Assembly (NCBI GenBank): GCA_043804695.1
Contig: JAZDIV010000127.1
Coordinates: 1 to 54,223 of the forward strand
Source of the DNA: PVC group bacterium
GTDB taxonomy: Bacteria; Auribacterota; Erginobacteria; Erginobacterales; Erginobacteraceae
Length of the DNA stretch: 54,223 nt
Direction: 5' to 3'
The translations under genes and the position numbers were made by a program. The notes under the pieces were generated by a model that was not told the DNA's origin, did no database searches, and saw only the letters and a list, made by a program, of their open reading frames with translations. Each line of letters begins with the position of its first letter. Positions within the stretch are counted from its first letter, which is position 1. Below, one piece after another: positions 27,973 through 53,724 of this stretch.

Positions 27973-27982
27973 GTGACTCCGG

Positions 27983-35068: not shown

Positions 35069-35512
35069 ATGGATAAAAACGACCTCTTTGAACTGCTGCG
35101 ATGGTTTGAAAAGAGCACTCTTTCCGAGATCGCGCTGGAGAGACCCGACACCAAAGTGGTGATGAAAAAGGGAGGGGCGATCGCCGCCGGGGAGGCCGGC
35201 GCCTCCCCTCCGGGGGGCCTTCATTCCTCCCCGCCCCCGGCAGTCCCGGCGGCGGCTCCGGAAGAGGGCACCGAGGTGATCACCGCGCCGATGGTAGGAA
35301 CGTTTTACCGGTCGCCGGCGTCGGACGCGCCGCCGTTCGTGGAAGCCGGGGTGAAGGTCACCAAAGGCAAGCCCCTCTGTATCCTGGAAGCGATGAAGGT
35401 CATGAACGAGCTGGTGGCGGAGTTCGACTGCGAAATCATCGAGATCCTGGCCCGCAACACCTCCCTGGTCGAGTACGGCACTCCCCTCTTCCGGGTGCGG
35501 CGAGATGATTGA
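35069..35512 (+). CDS. accB: Acetyl-CoA carboxylase biotin carboxyl carrier protein
   Basis: CILEAMKVMNEL biotinylation motif with an Ala/Pro linker. Confidence 0.9.
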   Translation: MDKNDLFELLRWFEKSTLSEIALERPDTKVVMKKGGAIAAGEAGASPPGGLHSSPPPAVPAAAPEEGTEVITAPMVGTFYRSPASDAPPFVEAGVKVTKGKPLCILEAMKVMNELVAEFDCEIIEILARNTSLVEYGTPLFRVRRDD

Positions 35513-39314: not shown

Positions 39315-39403
39315 GTCATTGCGAGGAGCGAAGCGACGAAGCAATCTGACCTGAAGGGTCACAATGCTACGCATTGGATTGCTTCGCTGTCGCTCGCAAT
39401 GAC
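39315..39403. repeat. GTCATTGCGAG inverted-repeat element starting the base after the LOG stop codon
   Basis: gtcattgcgaggagcgaagcgacgaagcaatc-tgacctgaagggtca-...gattgcttcgctgtcgctcgcaatgac. Confidence 0.85.
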
Positions 39404-39633: not shown

Positions 39634-39804
39634 TCAGATGCCCAATGCTTTGAGCGCGGCCAGGACGTTTTCGTCCCCCCCCGCCGGGGGAGACCAGTCG
39701 ACCTGGACGCAGGTGTATTCGGCGTCGTCCAGGGCTTCCTTGAAAGAAACCAGGCCGATATTGATCGCCTTCAGCTCCTGTTCGAAGAGTCCGTTCAAGA
39801 TCAT
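39634..39804 (-). CDS. 56-aa ORF translationally coupled to fdrA (FdrA/YlbE-associated module, tentative)
   Basis: Not in the ORF track (<60 aa). The ATG overlaps the fdrA stop as ATGA. Sequence is MILNGLFEQELKAINIGLVSFKEALDDAEYTCVQVDWSPPAGGDENVLAALKALGI. The INxGL...VDWxPPAGG pattern is one I recall fused to FdrA or DUF1116 proteins elsewhere. Confidence 0.5.
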   Translation of the reverse strand: MILNGLFEQELKAINIGLVSFKEALDDAEYTCVQVDWSPPAGGDENVLAALKALGI

Positions 39805-41375
39805 TGTTTGCCTCCCAGAATCTTTATAATGTCAACCGTCAGCGCGCTGGCGGCGGCGTTGGTGGGCATCACGATCGCCCCGGCGTCCTGCAGCTCCTTC
39901 TCGACTTTCTTCCGGTTCTGCGGGTCCCGGTAGGTCCCGGTGATCGAGCAGACCACCGCCAGATGGCGGCCGGCCTCCTTCGCGATCTCCTTCGCCTCCC
40001 GGATCGGGGTGACAAGCTCCTGGCCGGGGGCCATGTTCGACCCGTACCCGAGCACGACGTCGAGGAGGATGACCGCGGTTTCGGGATCTTTCGCCTCCTC
40101 CATGATCCTTTTCTTCCGGAGCAGGAAGTCGATCATCGGGTGGGGGCGGCCGACCGTGAACTCGTCCTCGCCCAGGTCGACGACCGTGTTTTCCCGGCTC
40201 TTCCAGATGTCCTCGAGCTTGAAGGCCGGGTCGATCGGGGACGGGCTGTACACCGGGCCGATCTCTTCCTTGAACATCAGCTGGGTCTCGTCGCAGAGCG
40301 TCCCCCCGCTGAAGAGCCCGCGGAGATACTTCTGGCCTTCTTTCATCTTTCCGGCTTCGGCGGCGGCCTGCTTCCCGATCTCTTTCCGGCGCGCGAGCAG
40401 TTCGGCCTCGATCCCCTGCGGGTCCTCGCCCCGGGCCAGAGCGACCGCGATCAGGCCGGCCCGCTCCAGGTCCCGGGCGGACCGGGCTCCCGCCGCGTCC
40501 ATCACCCGGGGATCGCCGCCGATCAGAATCGCCACCACCGGCTTATCGATCCCCTTGATGGTCTCGGCCACCTTCTTGAGAACCTCGGGCGCGGGCGGCT
40601 TGGAGACAAGGACGAGCACCTCGGTGGCGGAATCCGCGGAGAGAGCCTTGATCCCCTCGATGAACATGATCCCGCCGATGTCCTTCTTAACGTCCCTCCC
40701 GCCGGTTCCGATCGCCTGGGAGATCCCCTCCCCCTGGTTGCCGATAATGCAACTCACCTCCTGCAGCCCCGTCCCCGAGGCGGCCACGATCCCGATCCGG
40801 CCCCGCTTGACGACGTTGGCGAAGCAAAGGGGAGCGCCGTTGATGATCGCCGTCCCGCAGTCCGGACCCATCACCAGGAGCCCCTTCTTCCGGGCGAACT
40901 CCTTGAGCTCTTTCCCTTTCTCGATCGAGACGTTGTCCGAGAAGAGCATCACGTGCAGCCCTTTCTCCAGGGCCTCCATCGCCACGTCGACGGCGTATCT
41001 TCCGGCCACGGAGATGAGGGCCATGTTGGCGCCCGGCGCCTGCTCCATCGCCCCCTCGATGCTTTTGGGCAGGTGCTTACCCGAGGAGGCCTTCTTCTGC
41101 TTGCTCTCCACCAGCAGCTCTTCCGCCCGGACCAGGACCTCATCCGCCTTCGCCCCGTCGGCGGCTTTGCCGACGATCAGCAGGTCGGTGTCGGTGGCGC
41201 CCTGGAACTCGGCGAGCAGCATCCCCGACGCGGCCAAAATCTGCTTGTTCTCCGCCGTTCCCATCACCACGGCGGCATCGTCGACCCCCTCCATCTCGGT
41301 GAGGGAGCGGGCGACCAGCATCAGGGTCACCGAGTCAAAGTACTCGCCGGTTTTCTTGATACCCTTAACGGCCAT
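39801..41375 (-). CDS. fdrA: FdrA-family acyl-CoA-synthetase-like protein (succinyl-CoA synthetase alpha-like fold)
   Basis: The N-terminus YFDSVTLMLVARSL...DDAAVVMGT is typical of FdrA. CoA-ligase-like Gly-rich segments are present. 524 aa. Confidence 0.8.
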   Translation of the reverse strand: MAVKGIKKTGEYFDSVTLMLVARSLTEMEGVDDAAVVMGTAENKQILAASGMLLAEFQGATDTDLLIVGKAADGAKADEVLVRAEELLVESKQKKASSGKHLPKSIEGAMEQAPGANMALISVAGRYAVDVAMEALEKGLHVMLFSDNVSIEKGKELKEFARKKGLLVMGPDCGTAIINGAPLCFANVVKRGRIGIVAASGTGLQEVSCIIGNQGEGISQAIGTGGRDVKKDIGGIMFIEGIKALSADSATEVLVLVSKPPAPEVLKKVAETIKGIDKPVVAILIGGDPRVMDAAGARSARDLERAGLIAVALARGEDPQGIEAELLARRKEIGKQAAAEAGKMKEGQKYLRGLFSGGTLCDETQLMFKEEIGPVYSPSPIDPAFKLEDIWKSRENTVVDLGEDEFTVGRPHPMIDFLLRKKRIMEEAKDPETAVILLDVVLGYGSNMAPGQELVTPIREAKEIAKEAGRHLAVVCSITGTYRDPQNRKKVEKELQDAGAIVMPTNAAASALTVDIIKILGGKQ

Positions 41376-41401
41376 AGGAACCCCCTTTTTAAATATTTAT
41401 T

Positions 41402-41540
41402 ACCACCAAGACACTATCCCCTCCCTCGCCCCCTTTAATAACCACCAAGACACTAAGACACTAAGAAACACTAAGAAAATTAATGTTCCCCCTACCTCGC
41501 CCCCTTTTATAACCACCAAGACACTAAGACACTAAGAAAA
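41402..41540. repeat. Two tandem extended CCACCAAG arms (same orientation)
   Basis: accaccaagacactatcccctccctcgccccctttaataaccaccaagacactaagacactaag, then ccccctacctcgcccccttttataaccaccaagacactaagacactaag. These are the reverse complement of the extended right arms at 33569-33629 and 34600-34669. Confidence 0.8.
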
Positions 41541-41550
41541 ATAATTGCGC

Positions 41551-41610
41551 GTTGAACGTTGAGAGTTGAGCGTTGAACGTTCGATGTTCGATGTTCAATG
41601 TTCGACGTTC
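41551..41610. repeat. Short tandem/palindromic repeats (GTTGAACGTT / GTTCGATGTTC units)
   Basis: gttgaacgttgagagttgagcgttgaacgttcgatgttcgatgttcaatgttcgacgttc. Confidence 0.7.
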
Positions 41611-41661
41611 CGCTTTTCATGCCCCATCCCTTACCCCTTACCCATTATCCCTGCTTTTCTG

Positions 41662-42519
41662 TCAGGTCTCAGTATAGCAAAGAAGATCCTTCATGGTTAA
41701 TAAAAAACCGACGCCCATGTCGCTTCCCGAGCTTTCACCAAGTGTAACGAGTTTTTCCGTCTGTCGCCGAATGTGATCGGCGCCACCCTGAAGCAACGCT
41801 ACTACCAATTCCTTAAACCCTTCGAACAGGAACCCGTCGGCGGCCAGGGCCATAAACGAGTTCGACAGGAGATTACCTGAACGGGCGGTTGCCACGATCT
41901 CTTTTCTTAACGCCGAACGATCCGCCCCGTCCAGCCGGTCCAGCAGATTCAGGCCGGCTAGAAGACCGGCAATAAAATCGTCCCCGGATGGCGTCAGGCC
42001 GAACCCGACGCCTTTCAGTTGCCGGATTCCTTCAATTATCCGGGATGTCTCAGCACTATGGATAATCCGGACCGCACCTGCTATCCGCTCGGCGACCTTT
42101 TGATCAAACTGTGTCGCAAAAAACCTTTTCCGGGCCGGCTCGATAAGAAAAGCCAAACTTTTCGGGGGCACGCAATCCAGCAGGACGGTTTCAAAAATAC
42201 TCAAATTGGCCCTTAGTCCGTCAAAATTGACTGTTGCCGTTTCTACCCGGGAATGAAAAATCTCCGCCTGATCGGTTGCAAACGGCCGATCGTTTAAAAA
42301 GATGAAACCTCCGTCCGCGCGGAGAGTGTTAAGCTGCGCGAGATCAATTCCCCGTACAACAATATTGACGGGTCCCCTCCCCACCTCCTCCGTCACCACC
42401 GAGACCAGCCGGTCCCCGTTGGCGAAATTGACGACTCTCTTAAACCGGGAGTGAACCGAGTACTCCCCCGGAAAGACCCGGTCGCCGATATTGATGATTC
42501 CTTCTTCTTTTGCCACCAA
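41662..42519 (-). CDS. DUF2877 (YlbF-like) protein
   Basis: GLTPSGDDFIAGLLAGL motif, with fdrA and DUF1116 genes nearby. The start (TTG 42519 or GTG 42516) lies inside a repeat arm. Confidence 0.6.
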   Translation of the reverse strand: MVAKEEGIINIGDRVFPGEYSVHSRFKRVVNFANGDRLVSVVTEEVGRGPVNIVVRGIDLAQLNTLRADGGFIFLNDRPFATDQAEIFHSRVETATVNFDGLRANLSIFETVLLDCVPPKSLAFLIEPARKRFFATQFDQKVAERIAGAVRIIHSAETSRIIEGIRQLKGVGFGLTPSGDDFIAGLLAGLNLLDRLDGADRSALRKEIVATARSGNLLSNSFMALAADGFLFEGFKELVVALLQGGADHIRRQTEKLVTLGESSGSDMGVGFLLTMKDLLCYTET

Positions 42520-42962
42520 GACACCAAGTTAAAGAACCCTTCGTTGAATGCCGAACTTCATAATGGGAACGTTAAAATTAAGAATGAACCCCAATCGTTT
42601 CCCGGTAAGTTTTATGTGGCTTAACAACTGAGCCTCCCAGACAGGATTGACTTTATCTACGGCCTTCAATTCACAGATAACCAAGTCGTCAACCAACACA
42701 TCTAACCGGAGTCCTTCATCGAAGAGCAACCCATCGTATTCTATAGGGACATCAACTTGGCGAAGGACATTATGTCCACGCTTAGACAACTCATGGCAAA
42801 AACAAACCTCGTATACTTTTTCAAGCAATCCTGGACCGAGTGCCTTATGTACCGTGTAAGCCGCATCTACAATCGACTTGGCAATTCGATCTTCTTCTTC
42901 GGATATAGGTTTAAATTTCTCACTCAATTTATTCCCCCTTGGTGACTTGGTGCCTTGGTGGC
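42512..42962. mobile_element. CCACCAAG-arm inverted-repeat element carrying a GxxExxY gene as cargo (candidate autonomous copy)
   Basis: The arms are gccaccaagacaccaag (42512-42528) and cttggtgacttggtgccttggtggc (42938-42962). The 409-nt loop is filled by one AT-richer ORF. A 42-nt direct duplication of arm plus flank lies at 43081-43122. Confidence 0.35.
42529..42927 (-). CDS. GxxExxY-family protein (PD-(D/E)XK nuclease-like fold as I recall)
   Basis: GPGLLEKVYE contains the G-x-x-E-x-x-Y signature, in the typical context IAKSIVDAAYTVHKALGPGLLEKVYEVCFCHEL. TTG at 42927 has GGGGG 6 nt upstream. The longer track ORF to 43023 reads through repeat arms. Confidence 0.75.
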   Translation of the reverse strand: MSEKFKPISEEEDRIAKSIVDAAYTVHKALGPGLLEKVYEVCFCHELSKRGHNVLRQVDVPIEYDGLLFDEGLRLDVLVDDLVICELKAVDKVNPVWEAQLLSHIKLTGKRLGFILNFNVPIMKFGIQRRVL

Positions 42963-43080
42963 GAAATTCATTTAGCCTTTCCCTCGTTACCACGCTCTGC
43001 GTGGCAACGTACTTGAGGAACACTCGCTCTGCTCCTTCGTCCCCACGCGGAGCATGGGAACGAGAAATTTCTCTCTTTTT

Positions 43081-43122
43081 CTTGGTGACTTGGTGTCTTG
43101 GTGGCGAAATTCATTTAGCCTT
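43081..43122. repeat. Second copy of arm plus flank (direct repeat of 42938-42979, 41/42 identical)
   Basis: cttggtgacttggtgtcttggtggcgaaattcatttagcctt. Includes the last three codons and stop of the NCS1 gene on the minus strand. Confidence 0.85.
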
Positions 43123-45012
43123 ATTTTTCAATTTCGCGCTCATCCAGACCGCGTAGACGGCGAAGGAGATAAAGAAACCGCTGAACCAGGCATAGAGATA
43201 GAAGGTCTTGAAAAACTGGGGAACAATATGAGCAAACGTCTGCGGGGCGATTTCGGCCATGAAACCCGGGATATTGGGAAGTACTCCCAGAATGAAGGAT
43301 ATGATCCCGACCCAGTTGAAGCCGCCGGAAAACGTATACGGGCCGTCTTCTTCATACAGGCCGGCCAGGTTGAGCCGTCGGCGGCGGACGACGTAGAAGT
43401 CGGCGATCATCACTCCGGCCACGCCGCCCATCAGCGCCGAGTAACCGATCAGCCAGGTAAAGATAAATTTCCCGGCCGTCGACAGCAGTTTCCAGGGCAT
43501 CATCACGATCCCGATGACGCCGGTGATCAATCCTCCCATCCGGAAGGATATCTTGTGGGGCGCAATATTGGAGAAACCGTTTGCCGGGGCCACCACGTTG
43601 GCTGCTATGTTGGTGGTCAGGGTGGCAACGGCGAGAACCGCCATCGAGAGCACGACCATCCAGGGAATCTTGAAATGGGCAAGTAATGCCACCGGATCCC
43701 AGGGGGCATCTTCCTGGGCCAGAATAGTGGGAAAAGCGATCAGGGCGGCACAGGTAGCGACCACGCCCACGAAAGCGTACAGGGTCATCGTGGTGGGGAG
43801 ACCGATTGCCTGGCCAATGATCTGATCCTTCTGGGATTTGGCAAAGCGGGTGAAATCGGGGATGTTCAGGGAGAGGGTAGCCCAATAACCGACCATGGCG
43901 GTGAGCGCGGGGAAGAAAGCAATAAAGAGCCACGGCCCCGCGGGTCCTCTCTCCTCCCGTTGGGCTGATGCGAGCACAATGGTGGTGGCTTCCGGGTCTT
44001 TGATGCTTCCCAGTTGCGCGCCGACGGTGATCTCCGAGGCATCCTCCCTCCAGTCAACACTGAATTCAGGCCTGAACGGTTCCCACTCCTTATCGGCCAG
44101 GGCATGCGCGACGGTGGATTTTGCTTCCTGTCCCGGGAGAACAACAACTTTCATTCTTTCAACCCGATATACACCGTCTTTTCCCCGCAACGGATCAAGT
44201 ATGACTTTCAAGGAAGTCTCTTCCCTGGTCAGGGTTAGGGTCGGCTGGAGAAAGAGTTTCGAGTTTTTCAACACCGAGGCCAGACCGCCGCCCGTATGAA
44301 TCGCCCAGACGAAGAGCGCGACCCCTACCAGGATCAGGGCCGGGGCGGACAGGGACTCGAACCACTTGATCGACTCCACGCCCCGGAGGACAATAATCAT
44401 GTGGAGAGCCCAGAAAAAGAGGAAGCAGAGCAATTGACCCCCGTTAATCCCGATAAAAGTTGACGTGAGCCCGGGCCATAAATTATCGAGATTGGGGAGA
44501 AAGATCAAAGCGAGAGTGTAGATGGCGAAACCGCCGATCCAGGTCTGGATTCCGAACCACCCGCAGGCCACCAGCCCCCGGAGGATGGAAGGGATCTGGG
44601 CCCCCCGGGTGCCGAAAGAAGAACGGATTAGAACCGGAAACGGGATCCCGTATTTGGTGCCGGGGATGGCGTTCAGGCAGAGCGGGATCAGAACGATGGC
44701 GTTTCCGAGCAGTATGGCCCAGATAGCCTGAACCCAGTTCAGCCCCGTCTTCATCAGGCTGGCCGCCAGCATGTAGGTGGGGATGCAGACGCTGATCCCC
44801 ACCCACAGGGAGGCGATGTTCCAGGTGTTCCAGGTCCGATCCCGGACCGGGACCGGAAGGTTGTCCTCGTTGGCCAGGGGGGACGACGAGACATCGACGG
44901 TCAGTTCGTACATCCCGTGAATCACCCGCTCGGTGCCGCTTTCTTGAAGACCGGATTTCGTTTCCGGCGATGGGGAATGGCCGTTTTGTTCGGTCATATC
45001 TGCTCCCTCCAT
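43111..45012 (-). CDS. NCS1-family nucleobase/hydantoin/allantoin-type cation symporter with a ~100-aa loop insertion
   Basis: 12-TM NCS1 pattern (WNIASLWVGISVCIPTY; GYWATLSLNIPDFTRFAKS). The soluble insert between these regions is encoded at about 43939-44265. Confidence 0.8.
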   Translation of the reverse strand: MEGADMTEQNGHSPSPETKSGLQESGTERVIHGMYELTVDVSSSPLANEDNLPVPVRDRTWNTWNIASLWVGISVCIPTYMLAASLMKTGLNWVQAIWAILLGNAIVLIPLCLNAIPGTKYGIPFPVLIRSSFGTRGAQIPSILRGLVACGWFGIQTWIGGFAIYTLALIFLPNLDNLWPGLTSTFIGINGGQLLCFLFFWALHMIIVLRGVESIKWFESLSAPALILVGVALFVWAIHTGGGLASVLKNSKLFLQPTLTLTREETSLKVILDPLRGKDGVYRVERMKVVVLPGQEAKSTVAHALADKEWEPFRPEFSVDWREDASEITVGAQLGSIKDPEATTIVLASAQREERGPAGPWLFIAFFPALTAMVGYWATLSLNIPDFTRFAKSQKDQIIGQAIGLPTTMTLYAFVGVVATCAALIAFPTILAQEDAPWDPVALLAHFKIPWMVVLSMAVLAVATLTTNIAANVVAPANGFSNIAPHKISFRMGGLITGVIGIVMMPWKLLSTAGKFIFTWLIGYSALMGGVAGVMIADFYVVRRRRLNLAGLYEEDGPYTFSGGFNWVGIISFILGVLPNIPGFMAEIAPQTFAHIVPQFFKTFYLYAWFSGFFISFAVYAVWMSAKLKNKAK

Positions 45013-45141
45013 ATTTAAAAGAGAAGAAGGTCAGGATCATTGCATACTCCAGATGTAAAGTCAACAAAGCGCCCCCATTACGACTTGTTTCCCCCCTGGA
45101 AAAATTGCATTCGCATTGACAAGCAGGGAAATAACTTATAT

Positions 45142-45175
45142 CTTATTTTTCCTCCGGAAAAACAAGAATGCATGC
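45142..45175. repeat. Family G hairpin (CTTATTTTTCCTCCGGAAAAACAAGAATGCATGC)
   Basis: Matches 14145-14180 and 30909-30944. Confidence 0.75.
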
Positions 45176-45285
45176 CTCAAGCTCAAGCTGATAAAAGAGT
45201 CATCTCCCAGAACGTAAATATCGGTTAATATTCATACGGCTTTCTTATGGTGTTGCCTCGATGATAATATTATAATCAGCCAACA

Positions 45286-45345
45286 GACCCCGATTGAATC
45301 AATCGGGGTCCATTATAAATTTGCGAGCGAAGCGAGCTAATTTAT
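45286..45345. repeat. GACCCCGAT hairpin plus family C module upstream of the DUF1116 gene
   Basis: gaccccgattgaatcaatcggggtc, then cattataaatttgcgagcgaagcgagctaatttat, followed by AAGGAGG and ATG 45356. Confidence 0.75.
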
Positions 45346-45355
45346 AAGGAGGTGC

Positions 45356-46609
45356 ATGATGGTAGATATTGCCCAGGCAAATGAACAGGCTCTGAAAAAG
45401 CTGCTGGAGGCGCGCCCCTTCTGGGTCGACATCCAGCCGGCGAGCGAGTGCGTGCCCGGGATGAAGAAGAACCTCATCCTCCACGCCGGCCCTCCCGTCA
45501 CCTGGGACCGGATGTGCGGCCCGCAGCGAGGCGCAACGATCGGCGCCCTGATCTACGAGGGGATGGCGAAGACCCCCGAGGAAGCGGAAGAACTGGCCGC
45601 CTCCGGCGAGATCGAGTTCGATCCCTGCCACCACCACGACACGGTCGGCCCGATGGCCGGGATCGTCTGCCCCTCAATGCCGATGATCGTAACCGAGGAC
45701 GAGGTCACCGGCAATCGGGCATATCAAAGCCTGAATGAAGGCATCGGCAAGGTCCTCCGCATGGGTGCCTACGATGACGACGTCATCAAACGGCTGAAAT
45801 GGATGGAAAGAGTGCTGGGGCCGGTCCTCCGGAAAGCGATCCGCCAGGCCGGAAAAATCGACCTCAAGAACATCATGGCCCAGGCGATCCAGATGGGCGA
45901 CGAACTCCACAACCGGACCCGGGCCGCCTCCTACATCCTCTTCACCAAGATGGCCCCCTACATCCTGGAGACTCTGGACCAGAAGGACCTGCACGACACC
46001 ATCGAGGCGCTCAAGTTCCAGGAAGCGAATATCCACAATTTCCTGGGCTTTGCCATGACCAGCGCCAAGGTCAGCCTGATGGCGGCGGAGAATATCGAGG
46101 GCAGCACCATGGTCACGGTGATGGCCCGCAACGGCACCGACTGGGGTATCCAGGTCAGCGGACTCGGCAAGCAATGGTTTACCTGCGAATCGCCGGTGCC
46201 GGAGGTGCTGCTCTTTCCCGGATTCACCAAAAAAGATGTCGGCCGGGATATCGGAGACAGTGCCATCATGGAAACCTACGGGATCGGAGGATGCGCCATC
46301 GCCGCGGCACCGGCCATCGTACTCTTTGTCGGCGGCACCTACGATCTGGCGGTCTCGAAGACCATGGACATGTACGAGATCACTCTCGGCGAGAACAACG
46401 TTTTCCAGATCCCTTCCCTCAACTTCCGGGGGACCCCGACCGGGATCGACATCGTCAAGGTGGTGAAGAAAAACCTGCCGCCGTTCATCGACACCGGCGT
46501 CGCCCACAAGGACGCGGGGATCGGCCAGGTCGGCGCGGGACTGTGCGACGCCCCGATGGATGTCTTCAAAAAGGCCGTTGTGGCGTTCTCCCAAAAATAT
46601 GCTAAATAA
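45356..46609 (+). CDS. DUF1116 (YlbE-like) protein
   Basis: The N-terminus AQANEQALKKLLEARPFWVDIQPASECVPGM..LILHAGPP matches my memory of E. coli YlbE. 417 aa. Confidence 0.75.
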   Translation: MMVDIAQANEQALKKLLEARPFWVDIQPASECVPGMKKNLILHAGPPVTWDRMCGPQRGATIGALIYEGMAKTPEEAEELAASGEIEFDPCHHHDTVGPMAGIVCPSMPMIVTEDEVTGNRAYQSLNEGIGKVLRMGAYDDDVIKRLKWMERVLGPVLRKAIRQAGKIDLKNIMAQAIQMGDELHNRTRAASYILFTKMAPYILETLDQKDLHDTIEALKFQEANIHNFLGFAMTSAKVSLMAAENIEGSTMVTVMARNGTDWGIQVSGLGKQWFTCESPVPEVLLFPGFTKKDVGRDIGDSAIMETYGIGGCAIAAAPAIVLFVGGTYDLAVSKTMDMYEITLGENNVFQIPSLNFRGTPTGIDIVKVVKKNLPPFIDTGVAHKDAGIGQVGAGLCDAPMDVFKKAVVAFSQKYAK

Positions 46610-46614
46610 ATGTA

Positions 46615-46877
46615 ACCACCAAGACACTACAGACTGATAACCACCAAGACACTAAGACACCAAGAGAGAAGAAGGATAAAATAACCTGTTTCGGAGAGGG
46701 GAGGAGATCAGATTATCCGAGAATCAGTTAGAAGGTTATCAGGATAACAGGCAACCAGGACCCTGGTGCAGGCCCCCTGATCTCCCGGTTTCCTGATTCT
46801 CTGCTCACTGATATCCTGATTTCCTGATACGCATTTCTTCTTCGTGTCTTAGTGGTTATTCGAACGTGTCTTGGTGG
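46615..46877. repeat. CCACCAAG-arm element (doubled arms) with nested family F inverted repeat (46706-46830)
   Basis: Left arm accaccaagacactacagactgataaccaccaagacactaagacaccaag. Right arm cttcttcgtgtcttagtggttattcgaacgtgtcttggtgg. Confidence 0.8.
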
Positions 46878-46893
46878 TAACAAAAGGAGGAAA

Positions 46894-48561
46894 ATGATGA
46901 GCAAGGGTATGATTGAGTTTTTGAGCAAAGCGAAGTGGTACGACCTGACCCAGGCGCTGAGCATCTTCACGCCGCCCTGGCCGGGCGAGATGCCGCTCCA
47001 GATCCAGTTCTTTAAAAGGCTGACCGGCTCGTTCATCGGCGGCGCCGGCGCCAACGGCCAGCTGATCGAGTGGTCCAACAACACCGGGACCCACCTGGTC
47101 GGCCCCACCGCCTTCCATTCCGGAATGCGCTCGATCGCCGACATCCCGCTGGAGGACATCTGCGGCGAAGGGGTGGTGGCCGATATCTCCGACGAGGTCT
47201 CCGACTACAGCCTCTACACCCCGGAGATGATCGAGAAGCGGGTCAAGGTCAAGGAAGGGGACATCCTGATCATCAATACCGGCTACCACAAGTTCGGCTA
47301 CGATCAGCCGGACGTCAAGAACCCGAAGGCCCAGGGCGGGATCGAAAATAAGGAGTTCGGCTACCTGGTCCGCCACCCGGGGCCGGGGCCGGGGTTCTTC
47401 GAGTGGGCCCTGAAAAAAAAGATCAGGGTAATCGGCGTTGATTGCGGCTGCGCCGAGCACCCAATGAACACCAACATCCGCTACATGCACGAGCGCGAGT
47501 TCGCCAAGGCGGAAGCGAAACTGAAAAAAAACCACGGCAAAACCTGGGATGAAGTCTTCCCACCCGATAAGTACTACAAGCTGACCCACCAGACCATGCC
47601 CAAGGCGGGGCTCCTGCTGGCGGAGTCGCTGGGCGGCCAGATCGGCAAGCTGAGCAACCAGCGGGCCTGGATCATGATCCACCCGATCCCCTTCTGCGAG
47701 GTCGAGTCGGCCTGGGCCCGGGTGGTGGCCCTGCAACCGCCCAAGGGGATGAGCGCGCAAGCCTTCTTCGCCCGGATGAAGAGGGAGAAGATGTACGACA
47801 TGTCGATCCCCTTCTCCGTCCAGACGCCCCAGTGGGCGAACTATGTCCCCCTGATCGTCCACTACACCAAGCGGGTCGGCGGCCAGTACTTCGGCCTGGG
47901 GCGCAATAACGCCCACTGCAAGGCCAGCTTCCACCTGAGCTGCCACATGGACGGCGAGAAGCATTTTTCCATGGGCGGCCGCACGATCGGCCAGACGCCG
48001 ATGGACTTCTGGGTCGGCCCCGGGGCGATCGCCGACATCTCCGGCATGGTCAGCGACACCAGCGTCTACACGCCGGCGATGGTCGAGGAGGTCGTCGATG
48101 TGAAGAAAGGCGACATCCTGATCATCAAGACCGGCTACTACAAGTACGGCTGGTGCAGCCCGGATTCCGACGAGTTCCGCTACATGATCCGGCACCCGGG
48201 GCCGGCGCCGGACTTCGCCGACTGGTGCATCAAGAAGCAGATCAAGTGGCTGGGCATTGACTGCGTGGCGATGGAACACCCGATGAACACCATCCAGCGG
48301 AACTGGCACCCCAAGACCTTCGCCGAGGCCGACCGGAAACTGCAGGAAAAATTCGGGAAGTCCTGGGACGAGATGTACCCGCTGGACAAGTTTTACCAGG
48401 ATATGCACCTGAACCTCTTTCCCAAGGGGATCATCCACGCCGAGAACCTGGGCAAGGACCTGGGGGAGATAAAGAGCGGCCGCTACTTCATCGGCTGCTT
48501 CATCCAGAAGGGGATGGAGCTCGCCTCCTGCTGGGCCCGCTTCGTCGCCTGGAAGGAGTAA
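46894..48561 (+). CDS. Tandem-duplicated cyclase-fold (kynurenine-formamidase/isatin-hydrolase-like) protein
   Basis: AAGGAGG SD before ATG 46894. The two halves are clearly paralogous (GDILIINTGYHKFGY / GDILIIKTGYYKYGW; RHPGPGPGF / RHPGPAPDF; AEHPMNT / MEHPMNT). Confidence 0.75.
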   Translation: MMSKGMIEFLSKAKWYDLTQALSIFTPPWPGEMPLQIQFFKRLTGSFIGGAGANGQLIEWSNNTGTHLVGPTAFHSGMRSIADIPLEDICGEGVVADISDEVSDYSLYTPEMIEKRVKVKEGDILIINTGYHKFGYDQPDVKNPKAQGGIENKEFGYLVRHPGPGPGFFEWALKKKIRVIGVDCGCAEHPMNTNIRYMHEREFAKAEAKLKKNHGKTWDEVFPPDKYYKLTHQTMPKAGLLLAESLGGQIGKLSNQRAWIMIHPIPFCEVESAWARVVALQPPKGMSAQAFFARMKREKMYDMSIPFSVQTPQWANYVPLIVHYTKRVGGQYFGLGRNNAHCKASFHLSCHMDGEKHFSMGGRTIGQTPMDFWVGPGAIADISGMVSDTSVYTPAMVEEVVDVKKGDILIIKTGYYKYGWCSPDSDEFRYMIRHPGPAPDFADWCIKKQIKWLGIDCVAMEHPMNTIQRNWHPKTFAEADRKLQEKFGKSWDEMYPLDKFYQDMHLNLFPKGIIHAENLGKDLGEIKSGRYFIGCFIQKGMELASCWARFVAWKE

Positions 48562-48562
48562 C

Positions 48563-48589
48563 CAGTTATCGGTGATCAGTAATCGGTGG
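48563..48589. repeat. Family F repeat (CAGTTATCGGTGATCAGTAATCGGTGG)
   Basis: Related to 3696-3729. Confidence 0.55.
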
Positions 48590-48594
48590 CAGGG

Positions 48595-48633
48595 AAAAGG
48601 GCGCGCCGGGTTTTTCCCGGGGCGCCCTTTTTA
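48595..48633 (+). terminator. Rho-independent terminator after the cyclase gene
   Basis: aagggcgcgccggg-ttttt-cccggggcgccctt followed by ttt. Confidence 0.7.
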
Positions 48634-48808
48634 CTTCTCTCCGACGCTGGGATATCATCCCCGGGCGGAGAAAAATCTAAAGCAAAAAAACAGCCCGAGA
48701 GAAACAGTTGTTGCATGGATTAATTCCATGTGGTAGAAAGAAATTTCCCGATATATGAAGGCATTAATCTTTTAAGGCATTATTCAAAACCACCACAAAC
48801 CAAAGACA

Positions 48809-49060
48809 ATGAATATTCGCTTTCATCCCCACGCTATTGAGCGCATGAAAGAACGCGGAGCGGACGAGAAAGAAGTGATCGGGACTATTCAATCGGGTGA
48901 AAAATTTCCGGCGAAATTCGGAAGAACCGGTTTCCGGCGTAATTTCTCTTTCAATAAGAGCTGGATAGGAAGAGCATATAAAACAAAACAAATTGAAGCT
49001 TTGGCGATAAAAAAAGAGGCCGATTGGTTGGTTATCACTGTGATCACCAAATATTTTTGA
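48809..49060 (+). CDS. DUF4258-domain protein (putative toxin)
   Basis: MNIRFHPHAIERMKERGADEKEV... is typical of DUF4258. AT-rich. 83 aa. Confidence 0.7.
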   Translation: MNIRFHPHAIERMKERGADEKEVIGTIQSGEKFPAKFGRTGFRRNFSFNKSWIGRAYKTKQIEALAIKKEADWLVITVITKYF

Positions 49061-49081
49061 TGATCCGACAAGGAGACTGTC

Positions 49082-49327
49082 ATGAGATTTACATATGATC
49101 CGCGCTACAACATAGCCTATCTCCGATTTCAGGAAAAAATGGCCGGTGTAGAGACGGTGAAGTTAAGCGATGAGCTGTTAGTAGACATGGACCCGGATGG
49201 AAGGATATATGGTATTGAACTACTCAATGCAAACGAGCAGTTAACGCGTGGTGATGAAAATCAACTTCTGGTAATTAACGAAGCCACGGGAGAGGAAACG
49301 GGATTGCCGATCGCGATCGGCGGTTGA
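49082..49327 (+). CDS. DUF2283-domain protein (putative antitoxin)
   Basis: MRFTYDPRYNIAYLRF...DGRIYGIELLNA is typical of DUF2283. Lies 21 nt after the DUF4258 gene. Confidence 0.7.
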   Translation: MRFTYDPRYNIAYLRFQEKMAGVETVKLSDELLVDMDPDGRIYGIELLNANEQLTRGDENQLLVINEATGEETGLPIAIGG

Positions 49328-49366
49328 ATTTTAATTTTTACGAAGCAAAAATATCAGGAGGCAGAT

Positions 49367-50254
49367 ATGGCCATAGCGCTGGAGTTCGACTATTTCAAGC
49401 CCGGGACCCTGGAGGAAGCCGTCGAGCTGAAGGCCAGGTATGGCGGGAAGGCGCGCTTCCTGGCCGGCGGCACCGACCTGGTCAACGACCTGAGCGACGA
49501 GGCGATCGAACCGGAGGCAGTGATCGACCTCAAGGGGATCGAAGAACTGGGACGCCTGGAATTAAAAGGCGACACGCTCTTTATCGGCGCCCTGGTCACC
49601 TTCAGCGATCTGATCGATTCGGACCTGATTAAAAAGCGGTTTCCCCTGCTCTGGGAGGCGGCCGGGGAAGTGGCCTCGGTAGTGATTCGCAACCGCGCCA
49701 CGGTCGCCGGCAACATCTGTTCCTGCGTCCCCTGCATGGACAGCGCCCCCGCCCTGGTGGCTTACGGGGCCTCGGTGTTGATCCGGGGACCCAAGGGCGA
49801 AAAAACCATCCCGGTGACGGAGTTCTTTCTCGGCCCGCGGAAAACAGCCCTGAAAGACAATGAAGTCCTGGTTGGTATTCTCCTGCCGGTTCCCGAAAAG
49901 CACGGCGCCAGCTACCTGAAGCAGAAAAGATACCGGGGCGAGGACCTGGCCCAGTCGGATGTGGGGATATTGGCCCTGGAAGGCAACGACTACCGGATCG
50001 TCTTCGGCTCGGTCGGGCCGGTTCCCATCCGGGCCGAAAAGATCGAGAAAGTTCTGCGGGGCAAAAAGCTTACCGACGAATTGATAGCCGAAGCCAAGAA
50101 ACTGGTCAAAGACGAAATCGCGCCCATTGCCGATATCCGTTCAAGCAAGGAATACCGGCTGATCATGGCCGAGGTCATGCTGGAGAGAGCACTGAAAGCC
50201 GCCGTGGCGCGGCTAAACGGCAAAGGCCCGGCCTACGGAACCAGTTTAATTTAA
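49367..50254 (+). CDS. FAD-binding subunit of a xanthine-dehydrogenase-family molybdoenzyme (CoxM/XdhB-like)
   Basis: FLAGGTDL and RNRATVAGNIC motifs, plus a CO-dehydrogenase flavoprotein C-terminal region (SSKEYRLIMAEVMLERAL). Confidence 0.85.
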   Translation: MAIALEFDYFKPGTLEEAVELKARYGGKARFLAGGTDLVNDLSDEAIEPEAVIDLKGIEELGRLELKGDTLFIGALVTFSDLIDSDLIKKRFPLLWEAAGEVASVVIRNRATVAGNICSCVPCMDSAPALVAYGASVLIRGPKGEKTIPVTEFFLGPRKTALKDNEVLVGILLPVPEKHGASYLKQKRYRGEDLAQSDVGILALEGNDYRIVFGSVGPVPIRAEKIEKVLRGKKLTDELIAEAKKLVKDEIAPIADIRSSKEYRLIMAEVMLERALKAAVARLNGKGPAYGTSLI

Positions 50255-50289
50255 ACCAGGATTAATTTACGGTATTTTAATAGAAATTA

Positions 50290-50380
50290 GCCACCAAGTC
50301 ACAAAGTCACCAAGAAAAAAAGTGAAGTGTTAAATCCCTAACTTATTTTGTTTTTCTTAGTGTCTTGGTGTCTTGGTGGC
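50290..50380. repeat. CCACCAAG-arm element between the FAD and Fe-S subunit genes
   Basis: gccaccaagtcacaaagtcaccaag ... cttagtgtcttggtgtcttggtggc. Confidence 0.85.
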
Positions 50381-50384
50381 AAAA

Positions 50385-50412
50385 ATAGCTAGCGGAGCGA
50401 GTTAAGTTCTGA
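50385..50412. repeat. Family C module (ATAGCTAGCGGAGCGAGTTAAGTTCTGA)
   Basis: Degenerate copy of the GCGAGCGAAGCGAGCTAAGTT core, followed by AGGAGG and ATG 50429. Confidence 0.55.
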
Positions 50413-50428
50413 AATTTCAGGAGGCACG

Positions 50429-50887
50429 ATGAAAAAAACCATTACTGTAACGCTGAACGGCGAAACCCGCACCGTCGACGTTGAGCCGAACGATATCCTG
50501 CTCAACGTGCTGCGGGATAAACTGGGCGTGAAGAGCCCCAAGTACGGCTGCGGGCGCGGGGACTGCGGGACCTGCACGGTACTTCTGAACGGCGATCCGG
50601 TCAGAAGCTGCATCATGCTGGCCATCGAGGTTGACGGCCGGGAGATCACGACCGTGGAAGGGATCATGGACGACGGGCTCACCCCTCTTCAGGAAGCCTT
50701 TCTCGAAAATAATTCGTTCCAGTGCGGTTACTGCGCCCCCGGGATGACCCTGGCCGCGACCGCCCTGTTGAAAAAGAACCCTCATCCCACCCGGGAAGAA
50801 GTACAGGAAGCGATCTCGGGCAATCTCTGCCGCTGCACCGGTTATACCGCCATCATCGACGCCATCCTGGAAGTCGCTAAAAAATAG
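50429..50887 (+). CDS. [2Fe-2S] subunit of the xanthine-dehydrogenase-family enzyme (CoxS-like)
   Basis: CGRGDCGTCTV and QCGYCAPGM ... CRCTGY cluster motifs. Confidence 0.9.
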   Translation: MKKTITVTLNGETRTVDVEPNDILLNVLRDKLGVKSPKYGCGRGDCGTCTVLLNGDPVRSCIMLAIEVDGREITTVEGIMDDGLTPLQEAFLENNSFQCGYCAPGMTLAATALLKKNPHPTREEVQEAISGNLCRCTGYTAIIDAILEVAKK

Positions 50888-50907
50888 CTCATTTCACTCG
50901 ATATTTT

Positions 50908-51196
50908 GCCACCAAGGCACCAAGACACCAAGGGGAGGATAAAGGAGCGCTTCGCGCTAATTGACAATAGCTATATCCTAAAGATTTTACCAAAGGTTAT
51001 CTGAGTCAACCCCGTTGTCATTGCGGGCGAAGCAATCTCATCATTCTTATCTGTCATTACGAGGAGCGCAGCGACGAAGCAATCTCAATTATTCGAGCAA
51101 CAAAATATCCTGATTACCATTGGAGATTACGCTGCCCCCACGGGGCTAACGATGCCTACATATATTATTTACTTGGTGCCTTAGTGCCTTGGTGGC
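50908..51196. repeat. CCACCAAG-arm element with nested GTCATTGCG-type elements, between the Fe-S and Mo subunit genes
   Basis: Arms gccaccaaggcaccaagacaccaag and cttggtgccttagtgccttggtggc. Inner gtcattgcgggcgaagcaatc (51017) and gtcattacgaggagcgcagcgacgaagcaatc (51053). Confidence 0.85.
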
Positions 51197-51237
51197 TAAC
51201 AAATAACTAAAATTTAGATACCGGTAGGGAGAATAAT

Positions 51238-53592
51238 ATGGAAACAACAAAAGTAGTTGGCCATTCCTGCCCCCGGATTGACGGAAAAGAGAAGATAACC
51301 GGCACGGCCCAGTACGTTGACGATATCGAGTTCGGCCCCAATCTTCTCTATGCCGAGATTATCGAGAGCCCGCATCCCTCGGCCTTGATCAAGAGAATCG
51401 ATACCTCGAAAGCCGAGAAGGTGCCCGGGGTAAAAGCCGTGATCACGGGCAAAGACTTCCCCTATAAGTTCGGACTCTACATGCAGGACCGCTATATCCT
51501 GGCCCAGGACCGGGTCCGGTTCGTCGGGGAGCAGGTGGCGGCGGTCATCGCCCGCGATCCCAAGATCGCCAAGCGGGCAGCCAAACTGGTCAAGGTCGAT
51601 TACGAACCGACCCCGCCCAACCTGGACCAGATGAAGGCCTTCAAGAAAGACGCCGTACTGATCCATCCCGACCTCGGCGACTATGAACACGTTCCCTGGT
51701 TTTTTCCCAAGGGGGGGACCAATATCGCCCATCACCGGAAGATCCGCCGGGGCGATCTGAAGAAGGCGTTCAAGGAATCGGATATCGTCCTCGAAGACAC
51801 CTATCATATCCCCCGCTACGCTCATTGCTGCATGGAACCGCACATCGCGGTGGGACTCTGTGACTACTCGGGAAGACTGACGGTCTGGTCGTCCTCCCAG
51901 TCCCCCTATACCCAGCGCCACCTCTTCGCCGGAGCCTTGGCCCCTCTTGGTTTTACCGATAAAGACATCCGGGTCATTACCCCCTTCATCGGCGGCGGTT
52001 TCGGCGGGAAGGCCGGAGTCACCATGGAGATCATGGCGGCCGCGTTCGCGACCAAGACCAAAGGGATGCCGGTGCGGGTGGCCTGGAGAAGAGACCAGGA
52101 GTTCTATAATACCTACATGCGCCAGGCGGTGGAGACCAAACTGAAGATCGGCGTCAGCAAAGACGGTAAACTCACCGCCTTTGAGATGACCAACTACTGG
52201 GACGCCGGGCCCTACGTCGAGTACGGCGCGAACGTCGTCAACTCCTCCGCCCTCTCCGCCACCGGCCCCTACTATATCCCCAATCTGAAGATCGACTCCT
52301 ACTGCATCTACACCAACCTTCCCGCGGCCGGCCCGTACCGGGGCTTCGGCTATTCGGAGATGCTCTTCAGCGTGGAGTCGCACATGGATCGCCTCGCCGC
52401 CAAACTGGGGATGAGCCCGCTCGAGTTTCGCCAGAAGAACGTTCTCAAGCGGGGGATGCCCCTCACCTACGGCGCGGGGATGACCGAGAACAATCTCTCG
52501 GAATGTCTGAAACGGGTGGCGGAAGCGATCGATTTCGGCAAAAAAGAGGTTTCGAAAGATCCCAACAAGGCGATCGGAAAAGGGATCGCCTCGGCCTGGA
52601 AGGGGCCGGCCATGCCCCCCAACGCCTCCTCCTCCGCATTCATCAAGTTCAACGAGGACGGCAGCCTGAACATCCTGGTCTCCGGGATCGACATGGGCCA
52701 GGGGCTTCTGACCGTGATGGCCCAGATCGCCTCCGAGGTCCTCACCGTTCCCATGGATAAGATCCGGACCGAATGCCCGGACACCGACCGCAATCCCTAC
52801 GAGTGGCAGACCGTGGCCAGCCACGTGACCTGGTCCTGCGGGAACGCGGTCAAACGGGCCGCGCTCGACGCCCGGGACCAGATCTTCAAGACGATCGGAC
52901 GGGCCTATAAATACAATCCGGAGTCCCTCTACCTGGAAGACGAACAGGTCAAGTGCCAGACCGACCCGGACTTCGCGGTCGCTCTCAAGGATTTCGTCAT
53001 CGACGGGATCATGCAGAAGGACGGGACCTTCCTGGGTGGGCCGATAACCGGGCAGGGAATGTTCATGCCCGAGTTCATGTCCACCGTCTGCGACCCCGAG
53101 ACCAGCCAGGGCGGCCATCCCAATCCGCACTACACGGTGGGGGCCGGCGGCATCGTGATCGAGATCGACAAGGAGACCGGAAAGGTCAAGGTCCTGAAAG
53201 CGGCCGAGGGATTTGACTGCGGAAGGGTCCTCAACCCGTCCCTGGTCGAAGGCCAGATCATCGGCGGTTTCATGCAGGGGCTGGCCACGGCCCTCTATGA
53301 GGACATGCGGTTCGGCGAGGACGGGGCGATCCTCAACCCCAACTTCACCGACTACAAGATCCCGACCGCGCTCGATATCCCCGACGAGATCATCCCGATC
53401 ATGGGGATCGAATCACTCCAGCACGACGGCCCCTACGGCGCCCGGGGAATCGGCGAGCATACCATGATCCCGGTCGCCCCGATGGTGGCCAACGCCGTCG
53501 CCGACGCCCTCGGGATCCGGATCAAGCGCCTCCCCATCACCGCCGAAAAGATCGCCCTGGCGATCAAGGAAGGAAAGACCGAAGTGGACTAA
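51238..53592 (+). CDS. Molybdopterin-binding large subunit of a xanthine-dehydrogenase/aldehyde-oxidase-family enzyme
   Basis: 784 aa. Has the a/b-hammerhead N-terminus (VGHSCPRIDGKEKITGTAQY), GGGFGGK, YRGFG and a C-terminal ARGIGEHT catalytic-Glu motif. Substrate not assignable. Confidence 0.9.
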   Translation: METTKVVGHSCPRIDGKEKITGTAQYVDDIEFGPNLLYAEIIESPHPSALIKRIDTSKAEKVPGVKAVITGKDFPYKFGLYMQDRYILAQDRVRFVGEQVAAVIARDPKIAKRAAKLVKVDYEPTPPNLDQMKAFKKDAVLIHPDLGDYEHVPWFFPKGGTNIAHHRKIRRGDLKKAFKESDIVLEDTYHIPRYAHCCMEPHIAVGLCDYSGRLTVWSSSQSPYTQRHLFAGALAPLGFTDKDIRVITPFIGGGFGGKAGVTMEIMAAAFATKTKGMPVRVAWRRDQEFYNTYMRQAVETKLKIGVSKDGKLTAFEMTNYWDAGPYVEYGANVVNSSALSATGPYYIPNLKIDSYCIYTNLPAAGPYRGFGYSEMLFSVESHMDRLAAKLGMSPLEFRQKNVLKRGMPLTYGAGMTENNLSECLKRVAEAIDFGKKEVSKDPNKAIGKGIASAWKGPAMPPNASSSAFIKFNEDGSLNILVSGIDMGQGLLTVMAQIASEVLTVPMDKIRTECPDTDRNPYEWQTVASHVTWSCGNAVKRAALDARDQIFKTIGRAYKYNPESLYLEDEQVKCQTDPDFAVALKDFVIDGIMQKDGTFLGGPITGQGMFMPEFMSTVCDPETSQGGHPNPHYTVGAGGIVIEIDKETGKVKVLKAAEGFDCGRVLNPSLVEGQIIGGFMQGLATALYEDMRFGEDGAILNPNFTDYKIPTALDIPDEIIPIMGIESLQHDGPYGARGIGEHTMIPVAPMVANAVADALGIRIKRLPITAEKIALAIKEGKTEVD

Positions 53593-53685
53593 ATAACCAC
53601 CCCCGTACAGCTTCGCTACGGGGCGGGGCAAGACATCTGCCCGCCACCGCAAGCAAGGCGTTGCGGGCGGGCGAAGACACAAAGA

Positions 53686-53724
53686 AATCCCCGGGGGATT
53701 CCCTCCCCCGGGGATTTTTTATTT
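53686..53724 (+). terminator. Rho-independent terminator after the molybdoenzyme genes
   Basis: atccccggggga-ttccc-tcccccggggat followed by tttttatttat. Confidence 0.8.

Follow-up and report, generated by a model that had tools for sequence, protein, structure and literature searches.

Gene content and conservation of the cluster

The window analysed here is the entire 54,223-bp contig C127 of a 2.97-Mb metagenome-assembled genome (MAG; 88% complete); the named organism closest to it is Candidatus Euphemobacter frigidus (phylum Candidatus Auribacterota). It carries a gene cluster in which AllF, AllG and AllH, the three subunit families of the Escherichia coli oxamic transcarbamylase, are encoded together with an NCS1 permease, a cyclase-fold metal hydrolase and a three-subunit molybdenum (Mo) hydroxylase. 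This cluster and the conserved cassette to which it belongs are the subject of the present analysis. Genes were called from a listing of open reading frames (ORFs) together with Pfam and NCBIfam scans of the window proteins, and these place the cluster in two divergent transcription units. The minus-strand unit consists of the NCS1 permease, a GxxExxY gene, AllH, AllF and an ORF of 56 amino acids (aa). The plus-strand unit consists of AllG, a tandem cyclase, a DUF4258 and DUF2283 pair, the FAD, 2Fe-2S and Mo subunits of the hydroxylase and a hairpin. The features are as follows:

39634-39804, minus strand: 56-aa ORF, split-off C-terminal tail of AllF/FdrA, with a start that overlaps the stop of allF
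39801-41375, minus strand: AllF/FdrA-like subunit, succinyl-CoA-synthetase-alpha-like (CoA_binding PF02629 + Ligase_CoA PF00549)
41662-42519, minus strand: AllH/DUF2877-like subunit (PF11392, E 2.4e-21)
42529-43023, minus strand: GxxExxY / PD-(D/E)XK_3 gene, an inserted passenger outside the pathway (PF13366, TIGR04256)
43111-45012, minus strand: NCS1 permease of the hydantoin/allantoin/uracil subfamily (PF02133, E 1.8e-106)
45036-45144, both strands: divergent promoter-like sites in the gap between NCS1 and allG (consensus scan matches only)
45356-46609, plus strand: AllG/DUF1116-like subunit (PF06545, E 4.4e-88)
46894-48561 (alternative start 46852), plus strand: tandem cyclase-fold metal hydrolase of 555 aa (two PF04199 domains)
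48809-49327, plus strand: DUF4258 + DUF2283 pair, toxin-antitoxin-like, an inserted passenger outside the pathway (PF14076, PF10049)
49367-50254, plus strand: FAD subunit of the Mo hydroxylase (PF00941 + PF03450)
50429-50887, plus strand: two-[2Fe-2S] subunit of the Mo hydroxylase (PF00111 + PF01799)
51238-53592, plus strand: molybdopterin subunit, type A (PF01315 + PF02738 + PF20256)
53682-53720, plus strand: strong terminator-like hairpin ending the plus-strand operon (17-bp stem with 9 G-C pairs, then a T-run)
~41375-41662, 42498-43122, 46603-46892, 50254-50429 and 50887-51238: CCACCAAG-type inverted repeats

Every component named in the original prediction, that is the permease, the amidohydrolase, the hydroxylase subunits and the FdrA/YlbE/YlbF trio, was recovered in the Pfam and NCBIfam scans, intact and where it had been placed. 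All of the pathway ORFs gave full-length alignments to orthologues and, because each of them aligns end to end, the cluster looks functional as judged from its sequence. The plus-strand promoter-like site (45116-45144) showed 10 of 12 consensus matches and the minus-strand site (45064-45036) showed 9 of 12 along with a TG extension. A tblastn search with the E. coli proteins detected no allantoinase, AllC, AllD, AllE or carbamate kinase in the window.

At least 592 species genomes with a homologue came out of a scan that used an AllG alignment. The 80 species-level loci nearest to the window AllG were taken as the cassette sample and include Synergistota, Caldisericota, Cloacimonadota, Elusimicrobiota, Verrucomicrobiota, Kiritimatiellota, Spirochaetota, Chloroflexota, Bacillota and others. 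Gene contents were counted in the 44 of these loci that had at least 4 kb upstream and at least 6 kb downstream of AllG, which come from at least 12 phyla. The cyclase was found in 42 of the well-flanked loci, AllF in 41, the Mo subunit in 40 and the FAD and FeS subunits in 39 each. An NCS2 permease was present in 21, a recognisable AllH in 16, carbamate kinase in 3 and allD/C/E in none. A comparison of gene neighbourhoods had been proposed as a check on the original grouping, and its outcome was clear in that AllF, AllG, the cyclase and the three hydroxylase subunits travel together in 39–42 of the 44 loci. As the same set recurs in many phyla, the grouping lies far beyond chance; the cassette is real, intact and conserved.

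The order of the core, AllH-AllF-tail-AllG-cyclase-FAD-FeS-Mo, was strikingly constant. Optional genes precede it (a GNAT-like 241-aa protein, then a thiolase-DUF35 pair) and follow it (an NCS2 permease, a family III CoA-transferase and an amidase, in that order), and a CN-hydrolase was a further accessory gene in sister cassettes. Compared with this canonical operon, the AllH-AllF-tail block is inverted in the window, an NCS1 permease stands in place of NCS2, and the cyclase has two domains where the canonical one has a single domain.

A different picture emerged from the 80 loci nearest to E. coli YlbE, among which the cyclase or the Mo enzyme was found in 0, carbamate kinase in 70, allD in 51, allE in 48 and allC in 47. 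None of the 80 window-type loci carried allD/C/E, nor was a genomic link to allD/allC/allE or allK observed in the window or in these loci. The statement that the cluster is not the textbook allantoin route is in this manner borne out (0/80 against 47–51/80). Its description as an island, with the sense of recent acquisition, has to be given up. AllG was present in 25 of 79 genomes of the phylum of the window, including 13 of 13 genomes of its order, and the cluster is on that account inherited and vertically conserved in the order.

The 241-aa protein has no Pfam or NCBIfam match, is GNAT-like by language-model features and heads 20–24 cassettes (for example L032 6661-7386). The host genome encodes two paralogues of it, with 61–62% identity, away from the cluster (C110:12585-13316 and C33:26659-27396).

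Enzymes and permeases of the cassette

The AllF-AllG-AllH complex purified from E. coli is an oxamic transcarbamylase, which interconverts oxalurate plus phosphate and oxamate plus carbamoyl phosphate (Kim & Kim 2024, PMC11326118). Its operon includes the carbamate kinase AllK and sits downstream of allECD (PMC11326118). The trio can accordingly no longer be called uncharacterised, as it was at the outset, the enzyme type being known (PMC11326118), and DUF1116 and DUF2877 now bear the Pfam names AllG and AllH. The window encodes all three subunits together, namely AllF (CoA_binding + Ligase_CoA), AllG (PF06545) and AllH (PF11392), with AllF split into ORFs of 524 and 56 aa. AllF scored 497 bits against NF004760 (cut-off 433) and is 38.6% identical to E. 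coli FdrA. AllG shares 45.6% identity with E. coli YlbE along the entire protein, many residues being invariant, and AllH is 29% identical to E. coli YlbF over its C-terminal 119 aa only. AllH copies with 25–40% identity were found upstream of AllF in 24 of the 80 loci. The 56-aa ORF is 39% identical to residues 509–554 of E. coli FdrA (E 3e-7) and 48% identical to the C-terminus of a 576-aa AllF in locus L020. The tail follows directly after AllF in most cassettes, and it forms a separate ORF in the Bacillota locus L019 too. By homology to the co-purified E. coli enzyme, the three window subunits probably associate.

The same three protein families are thus encoded together in E. coli and in the window, yet the window enzyme is just 38.6, 45.6 and 29% identical, its AllF is split and its AllG belongs to another clade. 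In the cassette the place of allD/C/E and allK is taken by a Mo hydroxylase, a cyclase-fold hydrolase and a nucleobase permease. In a maximum-likelihood AllG tree, 81 cassette-context and 50 allantoin-context rows fell on opposite sides of one long branch (~0.9 changes per site; SH-aLRT of 100 on either side; 96 cassette-side and 78 E. coli-side rows); the rows were gathered with two queries and intermediate sequences may exist. The window AllG does not lie in the clade of the assayed E. coli enzyme in this tree. In MAGs of nitrifiers, AllFGH genes have also been described next to genes for biuret/triuret (PMC12625717).

Carbamate kinase was present in 24 of the 25 AllG-positive genomes of the phylum, the exception being 75% complete, as against 6 of the 54 AllG-negative ones, or 7 of 7 against 4 of 16 when counted by family, related genomes not being independent samples. 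The only carbamate kinase of the host genome lies in the 8700-12400 region of contig C150 (L107 5733-9405). The early remark that no carbamate kinase is visible therefore holds for the window and fails for the genome. The C150 gene is flanked by an OTCase-family carbamoyltransferase, whose best model is the N-acetylornithine/ornithine carbamoyltransferase at a score under the cut-off, and by a 410-aa pyridoxal phosphate (PLP) enzyme.

All family domains of a Mo hydroxylase were detected in the three subunits (FAD_binding_5 + CO_deh_flav_C; Fer2 + Fer2_2; Ald_Xan_dh_C + MoCoBD_1 + MoCoBD_2). The best NCBIfam models of the Mo subunit were XdhA (522.7 bits, cut-off 780) and HcrA (514.9 bits, cut-off 994.55), neither cut-off being reached, and the FAD subunit scored 131.8 against 404.55 for HcrB, with all equivalog models under cut-off. 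The nearest solved structure of the Mo subunit was the alpha subunit of 4-hydroxybenzoyl-CoA reductase (1rm6_A, 341 bits, E 9e-101), followed by 6-hydroxypseudooxynicotine dehydrogenase (251 bits) and mycobacterial CoxL (245 bits). Bovine xanthine oxidase, PaoC and the Desulfovibrio gigas aldehyde oxidoreductase scored 210–220 bits. The original prediction had singled out affinity to aldehyde oxidoreductases or CO dehydrogenases as a point to be checked; the subunit does not group with either and is closest to the 4-hydroxybenzoyl-CoA reductase alpha chain. HcrABC and E. coli XdhABC, its closest relatives by sequence, share the three-subunit FAD / 2x[2Fe-2S] / Mo architecture, but the window proteins score about half of the equivalog cut-offs, identity to E. 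coli XdhA is ~30% and the window-type FAD subunit is without a conserved extra cysteine cluster.

The G-I-G-E motif of all cassette Mo subunits aligns with the L-G-E of E. coli XdhA, so that the catalytic glutamate motif is present; this glutamate near the C-terminus is taken by us to be the bovine E1261 position. Orthologues of the window type (type A) that are 57–84% identical occur in cassettes of at least six phyla. A second type (type B), CoxL-form-II-like, ~30% identical to type A and accompanied by CoxG, was found in Chloroflexota, where one locus (L009, 3895-11396) has both types in tandem after the cyclase. Two further lines were pursued and dropped. In the window subunit Ala and Ser stand in place of bovine E802 and R880, the positions that we assume to be purine-specific; neither of these bovine residues is found in E. 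coli XdhA either, hence the comparison does not discriminate within this subfamily. A C-x-C-x-x-C motif (C-S-C-V-P-C, 49709-49735) in the FAD-contact loop of the FAD subunit occurs in none but the closest relatives; in other type-A orthologues the stretch reads G-N-I-C-S-A-V-P-S, which makes a conserved additional metal site improbable.

The tandem cyclase (PF04199, 180 bits, two domains) is an exact match of database protein P0003 and belongs to a family of ~554 aa whose members keep at least 75% identity between Bacillota and Chloroflexota and are annotated just as cyclase family protein. Its halves are 39% identical to each other. Alignment to KynB structures showed the metal motif H-x3-H-x-D-x3-H to be intact in the C-half (H-L-S-C-H-M-D-G-E-K-H) and degenerate in the N-half (N-T-G-T-H-L-V-G-P-T-A), where three of the four ligands are lost. 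The degenerate motif is invariant throughout the family and the intact motif is kept in 35 of 35 single-domain cassette cyclases. An AlphaFold (AF2) model of the tandem protein had a pLDDT of 75 and a pTM of 0.83, and Foldseek matched it to cyclase-fold structures only (KynB, isatin hydrolase and Mn/Zn hydrolases; target TM-scores 0.6–0.75 per domain). The arylformamidase KynB equivalog TIGR03035 gave 60.5 bits and its cut-off of 223 was not reached. Fold and metal motif are shared with KynB and isatin hydrolase, yet the relationship is very distant (E 5e-8) and the window protein differs in its two fused domains, its one degenerate site and its extreme conservation across phyla.

The tandem form was found in 18 species genomes, mostly adjoining AllF, AllG and the hydroxylase subunits. 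In two Bacillota MAGs (Syntrophomonadaceae), tandem cyclases 80–82% identical to that of the window (L005 9989-11665 and L017 6639-8303) have no AllF or AllG nearby and follow two to three MttB-family methyltransferases, a hydantoinase_A-like protein and a pterin-binding protein. This context is not accounted for by the pyrimidine model considered below.

The NCS1 permease of the window matched PF02133 in two stretches (357 bits) and scored 346 against the TIGR00800 cut-off of 353.1, the score being lowered by an insert of ~100 aa. The allantoin-permease equivalog gave 270 bits and its cut-off of 620 was not reached. The best solved relative was the hydantoin permease Mhp1 (E 1.6e-34), and equivalents of Mhp1 W117, Q121, W220, N314 and N318 are kept; we take these Trp, Gln and Asn positions to be the hydantoin-ring and Na+ site residues of Mhp1. 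The insert is soluble, lies between two conserved membrane blocks (43939-44265, residues ~252-355) and is kept in Auribacterota relatives, whose NCS1 proteins aligned at 0.99–1.0 coverage.

Sister cassettes contain permeases of pyrimidine type. The NAT motif (defined in PMC5972032) begins with Glu in all 26 NCS2 permeases encoded within cassettes, as it does in E. coli UraA (E290) and RutG, while XanQ has Gln there (Q324); the criterion was validated against these three E. coli proteins only. Most cassette NCS2 proteins were 28–55% identical to UraA/RutG as against 20–28% to XanQ, with one at 55% to UraA. The best NCBIfam equivalog was the uracil permease in two of three representatives, and the pbuX subfamily (xanthine) for the Caldisericota type. 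Bmp/ABC nucleoside-type transporters were observed in Chloroflexota cassettes.

Candidate substrate and pathway

The gene set fits a general scheme in which uptake is followed by Mo-dependent hydroxylation, ring hydrolysis and phosphorolytic release of carbamoyl phosphate, and we regard this scheme as probable. Pyrimidines are the likeliest substrate class at close to even odds. The window is read here as one rearranged copy of a widespread anaerobic catabolic cassette that acts on a cyclic ureide, uracil and/or thymine being the most probable substrate, at a probability of roughly 0.5. The substrates and products, the direction in which the Mo enzyme works and the involvement of carbamate kinase are inferred.

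A single hydroxylation of uracil gives barbiturate, the hydrolysis of which gives ureidomalonate, and ureidomalonate is the CH2-homologue of oxalurate. In the proposed route the NCS1 permease would import the base. The three-subunit Mo hydroxylase would then add a water-derived oxygen to a ring C-H, converting uracil to barbiturate with release of two reducing equivalents. The cyclase-fold metal hydrolase, a fused pseudo-dimer with one intact metal site, would open the cyclic imide to an N-acyl-urea (ureidomalonate). AllF with its split tail, AllG and AllH would cleave the acyl-urea with phosphate, in analogy to the action of E. coli AllFGH on oxalurate, giving carbamoyl phosphate together with malonamate as the amide, and the carbamate kinase encoded on the other contig would convert carbamoyl phosphate and ADP to ATP, CO2 and NH3. 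In the chemistry that is proposed to be shared with E. coli, phosphate hence splits an N-acyl-urea into carbamoyl phosphate and an amide, and ATP is gained via carbamate kinase. In sister cassettes the amidase or CN-hydrolase, the CoA-transferase, the thiolase/DUF35 proteins and the GNAT-like protein could take malonamate on to acetyl-CoA.

The intermediates would be those of the aerobic oxidative pyrimidine pathway, in which uracil is converted to barbiturate and on to ureidomalonate by uracil/thymine dehydrogenase (EC 1.17.99.4), barbiturase (EC 3.5.2.1) and ureidomalonase (EC 3.5.1.95); there, too, the first step is a hydroxylation whose oxygen comes from water. The proposed route would differ from it in that the ring opener is a cyclase-fold metal hydrolase rather than a protein of the AtzD/barbiturase fold, and that the ureide is cut by phosphate to carbamoyl phosphate rather than hydrolysed to urea. 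The cassette hosts, moreover, are anaerobes. No match to the barbiturase/cyanuric-acid-hydrolase fold (PF09663) was found in the 88%-complete genome, control genomes being equally silent, and the best match to the dihydropyrimidinase model fell under its cut-off. The reductive uric-acid pathway (XdhD-YgfK-SsnA-...-YgeW-YqeA-YgeX; PMC12507026) is, like the proposed route, an anaerobic N-heterocycle route in which the phosphorolytic cleavage of a ureido group and carbamate kinase come last. The cassette contains none of its signature genes, and the transcarbamylase of that pathway has the OTCase fold (YgeW) and is not of the AllFGH kind.

To our knowledge, the only route by which strict anaerobes are known to degrade pyrimidines is the reductive one, and it yields no ATP. 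The cassette may, as a tentative proposal, represent an ATP-yielding, oxygen-independent 'oxidative' pyrimidine pathway in hundreds of anaerobic species, made up of a Mo hydroxylase, a cyclase-fold barbiturate opener and a ureidomalonate phosphorolase; the last would be a new specificity among AllFGH enzymes and would retain the ureido group in the form of carbamoyl phosphate. A search of the literature returned no description of the cassette or of the proposed route. Were it to operate, nucleic-acid turnover would be a fermentative energy source in sediments, groundwater, digesters and guts. The very widespread 'FdrA/DUF1116' genes would gain a physiological role beyond the allantoin pathway, one of the most conserved unassigned cyclase-fold proteins would receive its first function and Mo hydroxylases would acquire a new substrate class. 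A direct test may be feasible since the cassette is compact and since the complete canonical set, NCS2 permease included, is found in Caldisericum sp. AR60 (L032, NZ_JBLOBF010000001.1), whose record bears a title of the kind given to isolate genomes and not to MAGs.

Several observations weigh against a pyrimidine substrate or against parts of the route. The activities of the cassette-clade enzymes are predicted from sequence. The permease of the window is an NCS1 and not an NCS2 protein and its best named relatives are allantoin and hydantoin permeases; among the NCS2 proteins the pbuX model beats the uracil model for the Caldisericota type, and the three reference proteins behind the Glu criterion are few. 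PucR-type regulators, named for purine catabolism, are found in some cassettes. As the kind of Mo subunit differs between cassettes, the substrate that is oxidised may differ between lineages, and XDH homologues of anaerobes can act reductively (XdhD, PMC12507026). Carbamate kinase is adjacent in just 3 of the 44 cassettes, and the OTCase-like gene and the PLP enzyme could be its real partners in the host genome. Lastly, no amidase, CoA-transferase or thiolase partner for malonamate was detectable near the cluster in this genome.

Some of these points lead to other readings. The ring might be that of a five-membered or more highly oxidised ureide, such as hydantoin, 5-hydroxyhydantoin, parabanate or an allantoin-derived compound; oxidation and hydrolysis would turn it into oxalurate, upon which AllFGH would act as in E. 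coli to give oxamate and carbamoyl phosphate. Isatin hydrolase, which opens a five-membered alpha-keto-lactam, is among the structural relatives of the cyclase, the window NCS1 is nearest to Mhp1 and to the allantoin-permease models, and oxalurate is the substrate of the one AllFGH-family enzyme that has been assayed (PMC11326118). Nevertheless the window AllG lies in a clade apart from all allantoin-context enzymes, allD/C/E are absent from all 80 cassette loci and the sister cassettes have UraA/RutG-type permeases. On chemical reasoning, going from hydantoin to parabanate also takes two oxidations at an sp3 carbon, which is atypical for this enzyme family. We consider a ring of this kind unlikely.

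A purine route was held to be improbable. In it the Mo enzyme would be a xanthine/hypoxanthine dehydrogenase or a urate reducer, and the cyclase and the AllFGH-like enzyme would process a product of purine ring opening. That XdhA is the best NCBIfam model of the Mo subunit would fit, as would the PucR-family regulators adjoining some cassettes, the Bmp/ABC transporters of the Chloroflexota versions and the pbuX match of one NCS2 group. Yet the equivalog scores were all far under their cut-offs, every cassette NCS2 has the Glu of UraA/RutG and not the Gln of XanQ, and the cassettes are devoid of imidazole-ring or purine-specific enzymes (SsnA, YgfK, xanthinase and allantoin genes). Conversely, the reductive urate cluster is without any cassette gene (PMC12507026).

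There is a similarly small chance that the cassette AllF/AllG(/AllH) reaction differs from that of the E. coli enzyme, being a CoA- or acyl-phosphate-dependent cleavage or running in the carbamoylating direction, with ATP gain not the point. AllF has succinyl-CoA-synthetase-alpha domains, CoA-transferase and thiolase/DUF35 genes recur in cassettes, carbamate kinase is seldom adjacent (3 of 44), AllH is undetectable in many cassettes and the branch between the two AllG clades is long. These features have to be set against the manner in which carbamate kinase tracks AllG within the phylum (24/25 against 6/54 genomes), the full-length 45.6% identity of AllG to YlbE with its many invariant residues and the presence of all three subunits in the window. 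That the genes are accidental neighbours serving unrelated pathways, as the splitting of the window cluster into two divergent units interrupted by repeats and passenger genes could suggest, is already contradicted by the recurrence of the whole set, its order preserved, across at least 12 phyla in which protein identities fall to 40–60%, and is extremely improbable.

Neighbouring genes, passengers and repeats

Genes for a Na+-translocating biotin decarboxylase (carboxyltransferase, biotin carrier and OAD_beta) are located at 25381-29113, ~10 kb upstream of the cluster, and a complete acetyl-CoA carboxylase at 35505-38709 directly upstream of it. The two were considered as a malonyl-CoA sink and rejected, there being ~10 kb of housekeeping genes between the decarboxylase and the cluster and AccC being a true ATP-grasp carboxylase. 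Further upstream, a 721-aa ORF on the minus strand (21625-23790) has PTA_PTB (phosphotransacetylase) and acetate-kinase domains and may be a fused Pta-Ack protein.

Inverted-repeat elements of CCACCAAG(A/G)CAC-type octamers occupy all intergenic spacers of the cluster, while the same genes are nearly contiguous in the loci of relatives. The GxxExxY gene sits between two arms of such an inverted repeat and is found at the same position in relatives L001 and L006, not in L003. The spacing between the cyclase and the FAD subunit in L003 and L006 is too short to hold the DUF4258/DUF2283 pair.

An Rfam search of the cluster (E-value mode) and of 14 cassette loci yielded no riboswitch and thereby no hint of a ligand, the matches being terminator look-alikes and tRNAs only. 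No public sequencing run matched the stretch at more than 0.06 of the sampled words. Two exact short contigs (46638-46886 and 49182-49362) were obtained from a groundwater RNA library, by which neither transcription nor operon structure is shown. Sediment runs contained merely fragments of relatives, 85–95% identical, together with a very abundant 33-nt repeat. This repeat, GTCATT(A/G)CGAGGAGCG...AAGCAATCT, is present in two copies in this region of the window (51053-51085 and 39315-39347). Its summed read depth reached ~2400 in two sediment metagenomes and, given this very deep read cover, it is a very abundant short element in those communities.

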